A stretch of DNA of 64,000 bases from a virus. Its lineage: Duplodnaviria > Caudoviricetes. The stretch spans positions 32,001 through 96,000 of IMG/VR virus record IMGVR_UViG_3300014204_000122; one strand, 5' to 3'. The notes beneath the pieces are model-generated. The model worked only from the letters and a program-made list of their open reading frames with translations, had not been told where the DNA came from and ran no database searches. Positions 42,496 through 50,892 of this stretch are shown here, piece after piece. The number at the start of each line of letters is the position of its first letter. The first letter of the stretch is position 1. A program made the position numbers and the translations under genes.

Positions 42496-44457
42496 TTAAA
42501 TGTATTTGTAAATATCATCTTCAACAGAAATTCCCCATGTTTCATCAGTAATATCGTTTGATAATTCTATATTATTATATTCTTCATAGAACCATAATGA
42601 ATATATTTGATTTTTTTTATCTTGAAATATAAAACCATAATCATAAAATACCATATCGTTATATCCTTCTTTAATATAATCTAATTCTTCAATTATTTCA
42701 TAATTTTCATTTGCTTTAATAAGATTATAATTTTTTTCTATAAATTTTATTTTCTCTGTACTATTTGTGTTAATTACTGTTGAAAAAGGGTAAAGATTTC
42801 TGATTGCAGAATTAGTATTAGTAGGACCATCATAATAAACGGTTTTAGAATCTTCATCAATTTTAACATGATCTTCAATAAATTTATTTTTTATAATATA
42901 ATTTGAATATTTATTTATAAGATATTCTTCAACTTTTTCAGATACAGTTGGAATGAGAATCCAAACTATTTTTTTTTCTTCGTCAACTTTAATTATTTTT
43001 TCTAATCTTTCATCTAATTTAATAGGTTTAATATATTTTGAATATGCCATTTGGCTATTTTCCAAAATAGGTGTTTTATTAATATTTTTATTATAATAAT
43101 CTTCTAAATTTTCTTCAGATTCAAAATATTTAATTTCACTTTTAATTGGATTAAAATTAACCATTTCTCTTCCTTTAATAATTATACCATCATATCCTAG
43201 TTTTAACATTTCAACTTCAATAGTAGTATCTTTACGAAAATCTCTTTTGTCTTTATATTTTTTTGCTATATTACCCCAAAACCAAATTTCCCAATCATTT
43301 AATGTATTAAAAGTTTTAGGGTTTTTAGGAATAGCACCTAATACAAAATGAATCTTACCAAAAGGTTTAGCCATTTGATGATTAGATAAACAAGCTGTAT
43401 ATAAACCATCTCCTAACATTGCTCCACCACCGTTAGGGACTCCTTTTTCTCTCATTCCTCTAACTGTAACGTTTTTACGTTTCCATTTTAAATAATCAGA
43501 GTGAACATCTTCTAATAAATTTTCTTTTTTTAATAAAGATGTATGTTGTATAGTTTTTTCTCCATCTTTAGTAGGTTCAGAATAAACTATTTTTTCAGGA
43601 TTAACTACATATGTTTGATCTTTAAACATATCAATATATTTTTGTCCCTTTCCAGATTTTAAATAAGCTATTGTCGAATGTGGATTGTAATCAGGATAAT
43701 CAGAATGATAAGGAAAAATATCTGTTAATTTTTTATTTATTGAATTTAAAATATTTTTTTTAGAATTATGCTCTCTACATTCAAATTTTAAAACATCATA
43801 TTCTTTATTCTCAAAACATGATATATTATATAATTCTAAAGCTGGTATTTTAAATTCCAAAATACAATCAATTATATCTTTATAACTTTCTATTTCTTTT
43901 GTTTTAAATCCATATAATAATGTTGTGTGTGGTTCAGTCTCTAAACCAAAAGTAGGTTTGTCATATATATCTTCAGTATTTATTTTTTTTTGAATTTCTT
44001 TTAATTTATCAAAATTAAAAAACAACATAGCACATCCATATTCATATTTAGGCTTAGTTCTTTCTTCTAATAATACTTTTTTATTAGTAAGTTTCTCTAA
44101 CATTTCTACCATTGTTTTAACCTTTGATGGATTAAAACTTGATTTCACAGTGGTTGATACTAAATCTTTTCTAATATATCTTTGTATTTTATCATCTAGA
44201 TAATTTTTATCTTGTTTAGAAATTTTCTTTTTAATTATTCTTTCTATAATGTCAATAAGAGTTCTAGAATATGTTGAAGGTGAAATATTTCCTTTATTTA
44301 CTCCAGTTCCTAATTTAATCATCTTGTTTTGATCTTTTTCATTTAAATTCCCAATAGTATTAGCTTCTGGTATAGTTCTTTTAACGGCAGCCATTGCTAT
44401 ATTTAATATAACAAATCCTTGGTTATCATCTGAGGGAATAGGATAATTAATATTCAT
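42496..44457 (-). CDS. polyvalent protein: leader module, Acb1/T4 57B-like 2H phosphoesterase, ART-like domain, further domains
   Basis: MVEMLEKLTNKKVLLEE; GCAML, EPHTTLLYG and YNPHSTIAY (two HxT motifs); RG...GDGLY...A..FG...GYDGIIIKGREMVNFNP. Confidence 0.7.
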   Translation of the reverse strand: MNINYPIPSDDNQGFVILNIAMAAVKRTIPEANTIGNLNEKDQNKMIKLGTGVNKGNISPSTYSRTLIDIIERIIKKKISKQDKNYLDDKIQRYIRKDLVSTTVKSSFNPSKVKTMVEMLEKLTNKKVLLEERTKPKYEYGCAMLFFNFDKLKEIQKKINTEDIYDKPTFGLETEPHTTLLYGFKTKEIESYKDIIDCILEFKIPALELYNISCFENKEYDVLKFECREHNSKKNILNSINKKLTDIFPYHSDYPDYNPHSTIAYLKSGKGQKYIDMFKDQTYVVNPEKIVYSEPTKDGEKTIQHTSLLKKENLLEDVHSDYLKWKRKNVTVRGMREKGVPNGGGAMLGDGLYTACLSNHQMAKPFGKIHFVLGAIPKNPKTFNTLNDWEIWFWGNIAKKYKDKRDFRKDTTIEVEMLKLGYDGIIIKGREMVNFNPIKSEIKYFESEENLEDYYNKNINKTPILENSQMAYSKYIKPIKLDERLEKIIKVDEEKKIVWILIPTVSEKVEEYLINKYSNYIIKNKFIEDHVKIDEDSKTVYYDGPTNTNSAIRNLYPFSTVINTNSTEKIKFIEKNYNLIKANENYEIIEELDYIKEGYNDMVFYDYGFIFQDKKNQIYSLWFYEEYNNIELSNDITDETWGISVEDDIYKYI

Positions 44458-45030: not shown

Positions 45031-45690
45031 ATGAAAGAGATACAATTAGCCAAAATACTTGTAGATTATTACGAAAACAAAGGATATGAATGTTATAAAG
45101 AAGTGAGTTCATCAGGTAGTGGTGGATCTAAAAGAGCTGATTGTTATTTTATAAAAAAAGAAAATGGAGAAATAATTGATTCTTTTTCAGTTGAAACTAA
45201 AATGACACTGGGATTAAATGTTATAGAACAAGCTTATAAGTGGAAACCTCAAGCAAAACGTGTATATGTGGGAGTTCCTCGATTGAAAAGAAAACCTGTA
45301 AAAGCAAGAAAGTTTGCAATGTTTGTTTGCAATAAATTAGGCATAGGTATTATTGAAATAGCAAAAGGAGATATTAAAATTATACAAGAGGTAGAAGATA
45401 ATTTAAAATATAAAATGCCACCATTATATGAAGAACAAAAAAAATCTAAAGCAGGAAATGCAAAATCTCAATTTTTTACAAAATATAAAAAAACTATAGC
45501 TAATATAGATAAATTTATGAAAGACAAAAAAGAATATAGTTTAAAAGATTTATTAAATCAAATAGAACATCATTATTCAAATAATCTTTCAGCACATGGA
45601 TGTATAATAAAGTATATTAAAAAGGGAATTATAAAAAATTATACTACTAAAAGAGGAAATAAGTGTATAATGTTAGTTAAAATTAAATAA
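45031..45690 (+). CDS. PD-(D/E)XK nuclease-fold protein (MmcB-like)
   Basis: E..L, YKEV, RADCY, SVETK, VIEQA, VYVGVP, LGIGII. Confidence 0.65.
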   Translation: MKEIQLAKILVDYYENKGYECYKEVSSSGSGGSKRADCYFIKKENGEIIDSFSVETKMTLGLNVIEQAYKWKPQAKRVYVGVPRLKRKPVKARKFAMFVCNKLGIGIIEIAKGDIKIIQEVEDNLKYKMPPLYEEQKKSKAGNAKSQFFTKYKKTIANIDKFMKDKKEYSLKDLLNQIEHHYSNNLSAHGCIIKYIKKGIIKNYTTKRGNKCIMLVKIK

Positions 45691-45691
45691 G

Positions 45692-45773
45692 TTCCCACGA
45701 CAGGATTCAAACCCGCATTTTCAACATTCAATTACGTATACTTGATCCGTATTCAAGCTCGGTTACGTAGGAA
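45692..45773 (-). tRNA. atypical tRNA-Arg(ACG)-like RNA lacking a D-arm
   Basis: Acceptor TTCCTACG/CGTGGGAA; anticodon arm CTTGA-ATACGGA-TCAAG; T-arm GCGGG-TTTGAAT-CCTGT; only 8 nt between acceptor and anticodon stems. Confidence 0.55.
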
Positions 45774-45786
45774 TAAAAATAAAAAG

Positions 45787-45882
45787 TCTAGTGTGAGGGA
45801 TTCGAACCCTCGGATAATACTACCTGTGTACCACCGCACGCTTCCAAGACGTGCATCTTAAACCTAACTCGACCAACACTAG
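45787..45882 (-). tRNA. tRNA-Pro(UGG) with long variable arm
   Basis: CTAGTGT/ACACTAG + A73; CACGT-CTTGGAA-GCGTG; GAGGG-TTCGAAT-CCCTC; variable arm GGTGGTAC/GTATTATC. Confidence 0.8.
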
Positions 45883-45892
45883 TTATAATTAG

Positions 45893-45964
45893 TAGCCCTA
45901 GATTGATTCGAACAATCATCAAGTCATTCGTAGTGACCCATTCTATCCGTTGAACTATAGAGCC
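45893..45964 (-). tRNA. tRNA-Arg(ACG)
   Basis: GGCTCTA/TAGGGCT; GGTCA-CTACGAA-TGACT; GATTG-TTCGAAT-CAATC. Confidence 0.9.
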
Positions 45965-45973
45965 TCAAATTTG

Positions 45974-46058
45974 CTGATTAGGTACGACTCGAACGTACAA
46001 GCTCTTTACGAGCACTTGCTTCAAAGACAAGTGTGTTTACCAATTCCACCACTAATCA
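45974..46058 (-). tRNA. tRNA-Gln(UUG) with Leu-like body and long variable arm
   Basis: TGATTAG/CTAATCA + G73; CTTGT-CTTTGAA-GCAAG; variable arm GCTC-GTAAA-GAGC; GTACG-TTCGAGT-CGTAC. Confidence 0.8.
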
Positions 46059-46064
46059 ATATTG

Positions 46065-46137
46065 TATCCATAGATGGGTTTGAACCACCGACCGCCAAGG
46101 TATAAGCTTGGAACTCTGACCACTGAGTTATATGGAT
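46065..46137 (-). tRNA. tRNA-Ile(UAU)
   Basis: ATCCATA/TATGGAT + A73; CCAAG-CTTATAC-CTTGG; GGTGG-TTCAAAC-CCATC. Confidence 0.9.
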
Positions 46138-46160
46138 ATATTTCAATTAACTTAATCTAG

Positions 46161-46235
46161 TCGAGGTGGTGAGATTTGAACTCACGAACCGACGTTTCCA
46201 GGACGCCGTTGTATAACCATCTGCATAACACCTCG
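46161..46235 (-). tRNA. tRNA-Pro(UGG) with C33 and A37
   Basis: CGAGGTG/CACCTCG + A73; GGCGT-CCTGGAA-ACGTC; GTGAG-TTCAAAT-CTCAC. Confidence 0.75.
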
Positions 46236-46248
46236 TTATATTTTTTTG

Positions 46249-46319
46249 TTGTCTTACAAGGATTCGAACCTTGAATACCTGGATCAAAACCAGATGTGTT
46301 ACCATTACACTATAAGACA
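46249..46319 (-). tRNA. tRNA-Gln(UUG)
   Basis: TGTCTTA/TAAGACA; TCTGG-TTTTGAT-CCAGG; CAAGG-TTCGAAT-CCTTG. Confidence 0.92.
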
Positions 46320-46391
46320 ATATATTTTAAAATCTAATTCTATGTTTCTCTGTCTATCGATCCTTTAAATTAGTAACGGTCTCCTGTATCG

Positions 46392-46467
46392 TCTAGGTAG
46401 TGAAATTTGAATTCACGTGCTCTGCATCCCAAATGCAGCGAGATAAACCTGACTCCTCTATACCTAG
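46392..46467 (-). tRNA. tRNA-Pro(UGG)
   Basis: CTAGGTA/TACCTAG + A73; CTGCA-TTTGGGA-TGCAG; GTGAA-TTCAAAT-TTCAC. Confidence 0.88.
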
Positions 46468-46490: not shown

Positions 46491-46527
46491 AAAAAAAAAT
46501 CTCAATCAAATTACTGATTGAGATTTT
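46491..46527 (-). terminator. attenuator terminator upstream of tRNA array 1
   Basis: Minus strand AAAATCTCAATCA-GTAATT-TGATTGAGATTTT ending in a U9 tract, between the leader ORF and the first tRNA. Confidence 0.85.
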
Positions 46528-46559
46528 CTATTAAAATATGAAATATTAACGTAAAACTT

Positions 46560-46649
46560 TTAAATTTTAATATTCAATTTTAAACATGACTCAATCAGGC
46601 TGCTTCTGCGCGGCTGTTGAGGTATTTGTATGTTTAAAATTGCGTTCAT
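46560..46649 (-). CDS. attenuation leader peptide 1, MNAILNIQIPQQPRRSSLIESCLKLNIKI
   Basis: 29 codons, below the track cut-off. Control run ATA CAA ATA CCT CAA CAG CCG CGC matches the downstream Ile/Gln/Pro/Arg tRNAs. Contains CTGATTGAG, complementary to the terminator 5' arm. Confidence 0.8.
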   Translation of the reverse strand: MNAILNIQIPQQPRRSSLIESCLKLNIKI

Positions 46650-46663
46650 TTTGTTTATTTTAT

Positions 46664-46762
46664 TTTTAAATATTACTTTTTTATTTATTTATTATTAATA
46701 TAAGAAATTATTTTTGTTTTATTTCTATTTTGATACCCTAAAGATATATTTTTTTATAATAC
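46664..46762 (-). promoter_or_regulatory. 99-bp promoter region, copy 1 (tRNA array 1)
   Basis: Matches 50124..50222 except at 3 positions; contains TTTCTTATATTA and AATATTTAAAA motifs on the minus strand. Confidence 0.75.
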
Positions 46763-46766
46763 AAAC

Positions 46767-47180
46767 CTAATATTTTGAATTATTTTTTAACACTATACCA
46801 TTTTTATAAACTTCATACTCATAAAAACGAGGTAATCCATATTTTAGAGCTTCTGCTAAATCTGTCCATTCTTCTTCAGAAACCATATCATCTGGATAAG
46901 AAAAATTACCTTTTAAATGAGCAGGTATAGGTCTTAAATTAACTAAAACTAATTCACCTTCACCACCTTTAACATCTATTGCTAATTCTTCTGTGCTCCA
47001 ATCTGATTTAGTATCGATAATTTCTTCAACTCTATCACGAATTTCTTTTTGTGTATAAATTTTAGGTGTTGGAGGATCAGGAAACATATCTTCTTTCAAA
47101 ATTATTTTTTTTCCTGAAATTCTTTGTAATTTTTCAGTAAGCAATTGTATCTCTAATTGTTTTTCCTTTTCTGATTTCAT
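46767..47180 (-). CDS. leader-tagged hypothetical protein
   Basis: MKSEKEKQLEIQLLTEKLQRISGKKIILKE plus a unique domain. Confidence 0.75.
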   Translation of the reverse strand: MKSEKEKQLEIQLLTEKLQRISGKKIILKEDMFPDPPTPKIYTQKEIRDRVEEIIDTKSDWSTEELAIDVKGGEGELVLVNLRPIPAHLKGNFSYPDDMVSEEEWTDLAEALKYGLPRFYEYEVYKNGIVLKNNSKY

Positions 47181-48920: not shown

Positions 48921-48985
48921 TTATAGCATTTTATTATAAATATAGGAAAGTAAAATATAAAAATTAAATTTTATAATATTTTTTG

Positions 48986-49068
48986 TACTCTAGGTCAGAC
49001 TCGAACTGACACGCTTGAGGGCGACGACGCTTAAAATCGTTGTGTACTACCAATTTCACCACTAGAGC
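48986..49068 (-). tRNA. tRNA-Leu(UAA)
   Basis: GCTCTAG/CTAGAGT + A73; ACGAT-TTTAAGC-GTCGT; long variable arm; GTCAG-TTCGAGT-CTGAC. Confidence 0.88.
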
Positions 49069-49073
49069 ATTTG

Positions 49074-49155
49074 TGATCTAAGAGAGATTTGAACTCTCAC
49101 TATTTACATAATTAGCTTCTTAAACTAACGTGTCTACCAATTCCACCATTAGACC
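49074..49155 (-). tRNA. tRNA-Leu(AAG)
   Basis: GGTCTAA/TTAGATC + A73; TTAGT-TTAAGAA-GCTAA; Leu-type D-arm GTGGAATTGGTAGACAC. Confidence 0.85.
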
Positions 49156-49163
49156 ATATTTTG

Positions 49164-49253
49164 CGGAAGATGAGGGGGTCGAACCCTCGTAACGGTTTTT
49201 AAGCGTCCTAATTGTTTAGCAAACAATCCTCTTTACCATTTGAGTAACCTTCC
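49164..49253 (-). tRNA. tRNA-Ser(GCU)
   Basis: GGAAGGT/ATCTTCC + G73; ATTGT-TTGCTAA-ACAAT; long variable arm. Confidence 0.9.
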
Positions 49254-49265
49254 ATTTTATTTTTG

Positions 49266-49340
49266 TAGATTAGAAGGGAGTCGAACCCTCACTGAATAGT
49301 TTCTAAAACTATTGCCTCTTAACCATTGGGCTACTAATCC
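49266..49340 (-). tRNA. tRNA-Leu(UAG) with short variable loop
   Basis: GGATTAG/CTAATCT + A73; ATAGT-TTTAGAA-ACTAT; variable loop only TCAGT. Confidence 0.82.
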
Positions 49341-49354
49341 ATTTATATTTTTTG

Positions 49355-49445
49355 TACTCCAGGTCGGACTCGAACCGACAGTGTTTTCTCAATGAGTGTC
49401 ACCGTTTAAAAGTGATGCGTTTCAACCAAGTTTCGCCACTGGAGC
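49355..49445 (-). tRNA. tRNA-Leu(UAA)
   Basis: GCTCCAG/CTGGAGT + A73; TCACT-TTTAAAC-GGTGA; GTCGG-TTCGAGT-CCGAC. Confidence 0.88.
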
Positions 49446-49464
49446 ATATTTATTTTTTTATTTG

Positions 49465-49537
49465 GGTGAAAACGGGGCTCGAACCCTGTCCTAGATATTC
49501 ACAGTATCTCATGCTAACCAATAACACTATTTTCACC
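49465..49537 (-). tRNA. tRNA-His(GUG)
   Basis: G-1 GTGAAAA/TTTTCAC C73; AGATA-CTGTGAA-TATCT. Confidence 0.85.
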
Positions 49538-49546
49538 ATATATTTG

Positions 49547-49639
49547 CGGAAGAAGTAGGATTCGAACCCACACACCCCTAAAGGCCCTCGGTTTTCAAGA
49601 CCGCCGCCGCTACCCTGCAAGCTTTCGGCTTATTCTTCC
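49547..49639 (-). tRNA. tRNA-Ser(UGA) with enlarged D-loop
   Basis: GGAAGAA/TTCTTCC + G73; CGGT-CTTGAAA-ACCG; long variable arm; D region GCCG-AAAGCTTGCAGGGTAG-CGGC. Confidence 0.8.
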
Positions 49640-49653
49640 ATTTTTTTATTTAG

Positions 49654-49743
49654 GGTGAAAGACGAGTCACGATCTCGCATTAAGTTGTTACACTATTCCA
49701 GAACCACAATCTGGTCGGCATCCAATTACCGGCTACTAACACC
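49654..49743 (-). tRNA. atypical tRNA-His(GUG) with long variable region
   Basis: G-1/C73; acceptor with two T-T mismatches; CCAGA-TTGTGGT-TCTGG; T-arm GCGAG-ATCGTGA-CTCGT; 19-nt variable region. Confidence 0.6.
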
Positions 49744-49831
49744 ATATATTTTTAAAATAATATTATAAGCCGTACACTTTTCACAGTCGCTATGGGTTTC
49801 AACCATTTAGTACTTATAATATTATTTAAAG

Positions 49832-49915
49832 CGGAAGAAGAGAGATTCGAACTCTCGAAGCTTTTACACCCAGTTGTTTTCAAAACAATGTCCTCATGCC
49901 TACCGGATTTCTTCC
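49832..49915 (-). tRNA. tRNA-Ser(UGA)
   Basis: GGAAGAA/TTCTTCC + G73; TTGT-TTTGAAA-ACAA; GAGAG-TTCGAAT-CTCTC. Confidence 0.85.
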
Positions 49916-50026: not shown

Positions 50027-50119
50027 TTATCTTTTCGTTAAATCATACCTTGATCCACATCTGCTACTTGATAACAGGTGTAAATGCGATAACAACGATA
50101 TGATAACTATTTTTTTCAT
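50027..50119 (-). CDS. attenuation leader peptide 2, MKKIVIISLLSHLHLLSSSRCGSRYDLTKR
   Basis: 30 codons. Twelve consecutive Ser/Leu/His codons match the downstream tRNAs. Contains GGATCAAGG, complementary to the terminator 5' arm. Confidence 0.8.
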   Translation of the reverse strand: MKKIVIISLLSHLHLLSSSRCGSRYDLTKR

Positions 50120-50123
50120 TTTC

Positions 50124-50222
50124 TTTTAAATATTACTTTTTTATTTATTTATTATTAATATAAGAAATTATTTTTGTTTTATTTCTATTTTAATGCTCTA
50201 AAGATATATTTTTTTATAATAC
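50124..50222 (-). promoter_or_regulatory. 99-bp promoter region, copy 2 (tRNA array 2)
   Basis: Direct repeat of 46664..46762 (96/99 identical by manual comparison). Confidence 0.75.
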
Positions 50223-50247
50223 TAACCAAATTATTTTAAATTATTTT

Positions 50248-50892
50248 TTATTTCATTACATATAGTTGGTATTTTCCTTTAGGAAATTCTTTAATTTCTT
50301 CAGGTGTATTAGCTGTTGCTAAAACCTTAGTTAATGTTCCAACATAGTAAGGATTATAAATTTTTGCTTTTCTATTATAAAGAGATGGAAGTTTAGTTGT
50401 ACCATTTCCATCATCAAATAAATATAAATCTCTATTATCTTTTAAATATTCTTCTGTTTTTCCTGAACCTGATAAAATAATTGTTTTATCATTTCCCACA
50501 AGTTTAAGTAAAAAATATGCTGTCTTATTTTGCACAAACTCATTATTTAATGGATTTTGCGTATCAATTTTACTATCTGAATTTAAACAAGCTATTTTTA
50601 TTCCTTTCTTTTCTTCTTCTAATATAATACTTTTATTAGATAATGTTGAAAATGCACTTTCATTTAGCACTTCAAAAACCAATATACCGTTACCACCAAA
50701 TTTTGAATTATTTCCTACTAATTGTCCCTCTTCATCAAATCCTAAATGAGACCAACCATCTTCTTCTAATTCTTTTTTAAATTCAGGATCTAATTCAACC
50801 TCTTCTTTTAAAACTACCTTCTTACCAGATATTCTTTGAATTTTTTCAGTAAGCAATTGTATTTCTAGTTGTTTTTCTTTTTCTGATTTCAT
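50248..50892 (-). CDS. leader-tagged hypothetical protein
   Basis: MKSEKEKQLEIQLLTEKIQRISGKKVVLKEE; internal VLNE and IILEE. Confidence 0.75.
   Translation of the reverse strand: MKSEKEKQLEIQLLTEKIQRISGKKVVLKEEVELDPEFKKELEEDGWSHLGFDEEGQLVGNNSKFGGNGILVFEVLNESAFSTLSNKSIILEEEKKGIKIACLNSDSKIDTQNPLNNEFVQNKTAYFLLKLVGNDKTIILSGSGKTEEYLKDNRDLYLFDDGNGTTKLPSLYNRKAKIYNPYYVGTLTKVLATANTPEEIKEFPKGKYQLYVMK

Follow-up and report, generated by a model that had tools for sequence, protein, structure and literature searches.

A putative leader-peptide attenuator ahead of a phage tRNA array, with control codons that match the tRNAs encoded behind it

The window analysed here, a stretch of 64,000 nt, comprises bases 32001-96000 of a 136,569-bp IMG/VR virus record whose completeness is put at 63% by CheckV. 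The genome has a GC content of ~25%, carries nearly all of its genes on the minus strand and includes T4-type terminase and baseplate genes. Its terminase shares less than 27% identity with that of any GenBank phage, and no close relative was found among GenBank phages, where DNA matches covered tRNA genes only. A Shine-Dalgarno-like word lies upstream of only 5 of 102 phage genes, the start codons being preceded instead by 12 A-rich bases. This start pattern, together with tRNAs that resemble those of phages infecting Flavobacterium, Cellulophaga, Bacteroides and Prevotella, suggests a host of the Bacteroidota type.

Within this window, we were particularly interested in a cassette on the minus strand (cassette 1), in which a promoter-like block, a short open reading frame (ORF) and a set of alternative RNA helices lie directly ahead of a tRNA array. 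From its 5′ to its 3′ end, the cassette and its array consist of the following parts.

46650-46788, minus strand: promoter-like block and A-rich 5′ UTR of the leader transcript, shared by three leaders
46649-46560, minus strand: leader ORF 1, 29 codons from ATG to TAA
46614-46642, minus strand: segment 1, the 5′ arms of an outer 13-bp stem (46642-46630) and of an inner stem (46622-46614)
46608-46631, minus strand: control codons 7-14, Ile-Gln-Ile-Pro-Gln-Gln-Pro-Arg
46575-46598, minus strand: segment 2, made up of the outer 3′ arm (46587-46575) and the inner 3′ arm (46598-46590), the latter doubling as the antiterminator strand
46514-46529, minus strand: segment 3, the terminator 5′ arm, with 9 nt complementary to segment 2 at 46522-46514
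46491-46509, minus strand: segment 4, the terminator 3′ arm plus nine U (46499-46491)
45700-46467, minus strand: tRNA array 1 (ARAGORN, Rfam)

The 139 nt upstream of the leader 1 ATG, which contain TTGTATTA (from 46764) and TATCTTTAG (46746-46738), recur at 50110-50248 with 88-92% identity and, as a third copy with 76% identity, at genome position 122628-122756. Similarity among the three leaders ends at the start codon, and the composite motif of the block has three occurrences in the 136.5-kb record, one per leader and none elsewhere. The shared block presumably acts as a promoter. For five small genes upstream of cassette 1, PHROGs gives no function.

The frame that the sequence-only reading had assigned to leader ORF 1 is indeed an intact ORF with both its start and stop codon in place. 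As in the phage's own genes, there is no Shine-Dalgarno sequence and the upstream context is A-rich. Codons 7-14 (ATA, CAA, ATA, CCT, CAA, CAG, CCG and CGC) are, all eight of them, readable by exactly the four tRNA species encoded downstream, namely Pro, Gln, Ile(UAU) and Arg(ACG). With the codons that these four species can read making up 11% of this phage's codon usage, the chance of an eight-codon cognate run in a 29-codon ORF is ~6e-7. The array itself begins ~25 nt past the U tract of the terminator and runs in the order Pro(UGG), Gln(UUG), Pro, Ile(UAU), Gln, Arg(ACG) and Pro, giving three Pro(UGG), two Gln(UUG), one Ile(UAU) and one Arg(ACG) in total. It ends with an uncalled Arg(ACG)-like element (~45780-45700), read from the sequence by eye and 81% identical to a stretch in a related phage.

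Three codons of the run, CAG, CCG and CGC, had been singled out earlier as conspicuous, and they prove to be rare in phage ORFs (2.0, 0.9 and 0.4 per 1000, respectively). The proposed match of the ATA codons to tRNA-Ile(UAU) and of CGC to Arg(ACG) is likewise borne out by array 1, whereas ATA itself is no rare codon here: it occurs at 48.6 per 1000 and accounts for half of all Ile codons in the phage. CGC may be a weak control codon because, with a 15-nt downstream footprint, a ribosome holding it in the A site would already cover segment 2.

The leader RNA can adopt three helices. The outer stem, formed by 46642-46630 and 46587-46575 as a perfect inverted repeat of 13 bp, is part of the minimum free energy (MFE) fold and encloses the inner stem, in which 46622-46614 pairs with 46598-46590 around one bulge; together they form the 1:2 protector. 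In the 2:3 antiterminator, nine uninterrupted base pairs connect 46598-46590 with 46522-46514, and this duplex, at -12.1 kcal/mol, compares with a mean of -4.7 kcal/mol in 2000 dinucleotide shuffles of the ORF (p = 0.0015). The 3:4 terminator (46529-46491) has 13 perfect pairs, or 15-16 with the A-U pairs that extend into the tail; its loop measures 4 nt, and nine T follow. The helices are comparable in energy, at -18.6 kcal/mol for 1:2, -16.3 kcal/mol for the 2:3 conformer and -16.8 kcal/mol for 3:4, and the 176-nt leader as a whole folds with a z score of -6.4, none of 200 shuffles being as good. All three helices of the sequence-only reading were thereby recovered: the protector as a perfect 13-bp stem around a bulged inner stem, the antiterminator as perfect pairing of 46590-46598 with the terminator 5′ arm, and the terminator as a 13-bp stem ending in U9. 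Leader 1 therefore combines the hallmarks of an attenuator, that is, a short 5′ ORF, a run of control codons, a terminator before the genes, a mutually exclusive antiterminator and a 1:2 protector.

How a ribosome might steer these helices was modelled by folding a transcript that ended immediately ahead of the terminator 3′ arm, with a 30-nt ribosome footprint masked at each A-site position; the readout was the share of terminator 5′-arm bases paired to the leader ORF. With no ribosome this share was 0.11, the 1:2 helix holding segment 2 and leaving segment 3 free. It rose to 0.63, with formation of the 2:3 helix, for an A site at codons 2-13, was mostly 0.03-0.17 at codons 14-25, where segment 2 is covered, and went from 0.28-0.44 at codons 26-29 back to 0.11 at the stop codon. 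Masking segment 1 gave an MFE structure that contains the 2:3 helix. The folds thus lend support to the earlier suggestion that a ribosome stalled on segment 1 would free segment 2, and in masked folding, a form of which had been put forward as a check, the predicted antiterminator formed only for a ribosome at codons 2-13. For the complete transcript at equilibrium, the terminator wins (P ~0.95) at every ribosome position, and because of this the modelled switch would have to be kinetic, as in trp. A sigma-70-like match overlaps the terminator (46509-46482), so that expression independent of the terminator may also occur.

Two further cassettes of the same build are present in the record, each before its own tRNA array. 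One of them lies in the window.

50027-50119, minus strand: leader ORF 2, whose codons 8-19 are twelve consecutive Ser/Leu/His codons
49960-50000, minus strand: cassette 2 terminator, a 12-14 bp stem with a U8 tail
48985-49915, minus strand: tRNA array 2, containing only Ser, His and Leu tRNAs (ARAGORN, Rfam and sequence reading)

The run of twelve Ser/Leu/His codons in leader 2 has a chance of ~9e-9, and the array behind it includes two Ser(UGA)-like genes and a second His gene that were read from the sequence. Segment 2 of this cassette is at codons 22-25 and is complementary to the terminator 5′ arm (p = 0.0095). The array of cassette 3 serves 15 amino acids (Tyr, Asn, Phe, Arg(UCU), Trp, Glu, Asp, Lys, Val, Ile(GAU), Ala, Gly, Thr, Met and Cys). 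Codons 1-23 of leader 3, at genome position 122761-122847, spell precisely this set, with S, L, H, Q and P all absent (chance ~6.5e-6). The 2:3 complementarity of cassette 3, taken alone, is not significant (p = 0.43). All of the record's 31-34 tRNA genes stand behind one of these three leaders, and a strict terminator search of the 136.5 kb returned seven matches, two of which are both strands of one hairpin; three of the seven are the cassette terminators.

The 20 amino acids are split among the three leaders just as they are among the three arrays, and the split extends to isoacceptors: ATA and CGC are found in leader 1, with Ile(UAU) and Arg(ACG) in array 1, while ATT and AGA are found in leader 3, with Ile(GAU) and Arg(UCU) in array 3. 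This bears on what the leaders would sense. Leader-peptide attenuators such as trp and his respond to the charged fraction of a tRNA, and the same mechanism might here report amino-acid starvation, that is, uncharged tRNA, rather than the abundance or integrity of tRNA species; charging and abundance look alike in the sequence. We consider this reading improbable. The regulated genes are tRNAs, and more tRNA gives no relief from amino-acid starvation. Moreover, the sorting of ATA versus ATT, of CGC versus AGA and, in a related lineage described below, of TTR versus CTN Leu codons with the matching anticodons would be superfluous for a sensor of amino acids. Because leader codons sort with arrays by isoacceptor, which is our main argument on this point, we take the sensed quantity to be tRNA supply and not amino-acid supply.

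Several other features in the neighbourhood of the arrays deserve mention. Array 2 contains an 18-bp hairpin with 94% complementarity (49752-49830, minus strand), flanked by a Ser(UGA)-like and a His tRNA. The block of ~34 nt that it encloses recurs unchanged in a relative whose terminase is 74% identical, and the element may serve in processing, as an internal promoter or as a small RNA. Some tRNA genes are unusually long (85-97 nt, Pro and Gln; 45700-45882, 45973-46058 and 49355-49445), and some tRNA-like elements escaped either one or both of the gene finders, namely the Arg(ACG)-like element of array 1, Ser(UGA)-like elements at ~49915-49835 and ~49640-49545, and the second His element at ~49730-49650. 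These long or missed genes may have insertions or odd arms.

Both tRNA arrays of the window are flanked by small genes, seven to nine of them between 39916 and 55083, that have in common a 5′ module of ~60-136 nt encoding a shared N-terminus (repeat families D1-D3); PHROGs provides no function for the five that were checked. The only plus-strand gene of the neighbourhood (45031-45690; phrog_12193, no known function) borders directly on the end of array 1. A minus-strand gene (42496-44457), ~1.3 kb downstream of that array, encodes a 653-aa protein with a weak match to RNA ligases (phrog_755, E = 2.6e-5), which, if the match is real, could act in tRNA repair and would fit a conflict over tRNAs. 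Outside the window, array 3 is interrupted by two small protein genes at 124723-125450, and its Asp and Lys tRNAs are separated by an ORF of 10 codons with a high content of Lys, Gln, Ile and Val (genome position 124172-124204), followed by a 7-bp hairpin that lacks a U tract.

Related IMG/VR records were retrieved by terminase alignment and searched for tRNAs. Three more cassettes of the same build are present in two lineages, whose terminases (TerL) are 74% and 56% identical to that of the record. In the 74% lineage, the first cassette resembles those of the record in its promoter block; its leader, 21 codons long, abounds in TTA/TTG, GAA/GAG and CAA/CAG, and a terminator stands between this leader and an array of Leu(UAA), Glu, Glu, Leu(CAA) and Gln. 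The leader of the second cassette, which came from a metagenome scan with 65 loci, two of them real and identical to each other, contains ATA, CTA/CTT, CAT, CCA/CCG, TCG and CGC; the tRNAs behind it are Pro, Pro, a CAU tRNA, Ser(UGA), His and Leu(UAG). The TTR Leu codons of this lineage thus go with the UAA and CAA anticodons, and the CTN Leu codons with UAG. Compared with the record phage, Gln has changed arrays in this lineage, and the Gln codons have gone with it into the leader of the new array. The leader of the 56% lineage contains an unbroken stretch of 14 codons, each cognate to one of the Pro, Glu, Asp, Ala, Ile, Val and Thr tRNAs downstream.

When each of the six leaders was set against each of the six arrays, the longest cognate run was always with its own array (8, 12, 22, 8, 8 and 14 codons), with one tie, for leader 1, since the array of the 56% lineage also holds its four tRNA species. 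The terminator stems have six different sequences, each with a 5′ arm that finds its complement in the last third of its leader ORF (shuffle p = 0.0015, 0.0095, 0.43, 0.023, 0.0005 and 0.003). The design of cassette 1 recurs in five other cassettes, with leader codons and array content co-varying. A protector hairpin is present in four of the six and absent from cassette 3 and from the cassette of the 56% lineage; where it is absent, only a ribosome that reaches the end of the ORF would hide the antiterminator.

An orthologue of cassette 1 itself was not found, either among the related lineages or in database searches. Distant relatives (TerL 42-48% identical; G006, G007) had no clear leader, only degenerate or single tRNAs. 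No related locus was found via the RNA-ligase-like neighbour protein, a terminase-only search gave one 26-kb contig that lacks tRNAs, and a 27-mer from array 2 matched the known relative only. Other candidates were rejected: an exact 17-mer of the promoter block hit at least 117 loci in viral contigs, all of them chance AT-rich matches with no tRNAs; a two-block promoter pattern gave two chance matches inside a coding region; and terminase homologues on long Logan, ENA and JGI contigs had different synteny, with no tRNAs within 10 kb. Among the relatives, we further noted a lone tRNA-Met that has its own terminator and no leader ORF (L212:1331-1403, L217:531-605), so not every phage tRNA in the clade is gated. 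Some relatives carry ORFs of ~220-270 aa inside their arrays, possibly homing endonucleases, and one has a T4-type portal gene with three intein insertions and a 1826-aa product (L127:11834-17314).

The leader-array correspondence allows us to weigh further readings. The hairpins might be independent of translation, serving as the end of the upstream operon, as a small RNA or as a processing or stability element, with the short ORF being a chance frame. Indeed, the terminator lies ~240 nt past the stop codon of the upstream gene (46767) and would end that transcript too, and AT-rich DNA gives many short ORFs. What makes this reading very unlikely is that codon runs as improbable as those given above occur in all three cassettes of the record (~6e-7, ~9e-9 and ~6.5e-6), that leader composition tracks array content in two other lineages, and that a dedicated promoter-like block precedes each leader.

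Alternatively, the leader could encode a functional micropeptide or bind tRNA directly in the manner of a T-box, with no ribosome involved. The ORF is conserved as a feature, and its codons could in principle pair with anticodons. Beyond their start, however, the six leader peptides have no common sequence and vary with the tRNA content of the array. As for direct binding, T-boxes use one specifier codon and not an in-frame run between ATG and stop, and neither the T-box family (RF00230, at the gathering threshold or at E up to 1) nor any other Rfam family (E up to 1) matched in 46491-46800. We regard both versions of this alternative as hardly credible.

Ribosome-mediated attenuation of the trp/his type, acting on each array as a gate on tRNA supply, is in our judgement the very probable function of these leaders. 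Transcription would start in the shared promoter block, and a ribosome would load on the A-rich leader, which lacks a Shine-Dalgarno sequence, and translate the 29-codon ORF. Should charged tRNAs be scarce, slow decoding of Ile(AUA), Gln, Pro or Arg(CGN) codons would stall the ribosome on segment 1, block 1:2, let 2:3 form and so pre-empt the terminator, and RNA polymerase would enter the array; stalling at any single control codon would be enough to open the gate. With fast decoding, the ribosome would cover segment 2, or 1:2 would re-form, allowing 3:4 to form and transcription to stop at the U9 tract. If the leader were not translated at all, 1:2 and 3:4 would form, again with termination as the predicted outcome. 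The control codons are decoded by the very tRNAs that the array produces, so the circuit would place the supply of just these tRNA species under negative feedback, with the leader as the gate. We infer from the sequence that the ORF is translated, that transcription terminates at the U tract, that translation and transcription are coupled, and that decoding speed is the physiological signal.

Why phages carry tRNA genes, and by what means these are controlled, has been debated for some fifty years, with codon compensation on one side and evasion of tRNA-targeting defences on the other (PMC10264068). In this context, one may tentatively ask whether the cassettes are counter-defence sensors, which would detect depletion or cleavage of host tRNAs and switch on the replacement array only at the time and place of need. 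The depleting agents would be anticodon nucleases and tRNA-cleaving immune systems, each isoacceptor being polled by its own codons. While we see this proposal, in both its parts, as a rather doubtful extension of the attenuation model, it would, if true, make tRNA supply an inducible and self-limiting arm of the phage-host arms race. Independently of the selective force, the predicted cassette offers a testable regulatory logic, in which read-through into an array requires slow decoding of that array's own codons.

Full-text literature searching returned no report of leader-peptide attenuation of tRNA genes, the closest papers by topic being on phage tRNAs and tRNA-targeting defences (PMC10264068, PMC11464382). 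The architecture of cassette 1 is nonetheless that of the enterobacterial leaders trpL, hisL, leuL, thrL and pheL, with an ORF of control codons, a 1:2 protector, a 2:3 antiterminator and a 3:4 terminator with a U tract, and, as in the multivalent leaders of ilvGMEDA and thr, one leader would sense several amino acids. No match to the Rfam Trp, His, Leu, Thr or Phe leader families was obtained in 46491-46800 at E up to 1. Unlike the enterobacterial leaders, which govern biosynthetic enzymes, cassette 1 has tRNA genes downstream, its control codons match the downstream anticodons at the level of isoacceptors, its ORF starts with no Shine-Dalgarno sequence, and the record's leader 3 samples 15 amino acids, mostly once each.

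A further parallel is the pheM leader of pheST, a case of leader-peptide attenuation of an aminoacyl-tRNA synthetase gene. Here too, a leader-peptide attenuator is placed over a component of translation that serves the sensed codon; however, pheM deals with one amino acid and a protein gene, whereas cassette 1 would poll several tRNA species and regulate tRNA genes. The T-box, which binds one uncharged tRNA directly through its specifier loop and T-box bulge and needs no ribosome, resembles cassette 1 in that tRNA status, read by codon-anticodon pairing, decides between terminator and antiterminator within a 5′ leader, and differs from it in that cassette 1 has an in-frame ORF. If the proposed mechanism holds, these phage leaders would bring the tRNA pool itself, and not amino-acid metabolism alone, within the reach of leader-peptide attenuation, and would show a single leader to be capable of polling as many as 15 tRNA species simultaneously. 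They would also constitute natural, modular sensors of decoding speed, matched by isoacceptor, which could find further use as reporters of tRNA status.
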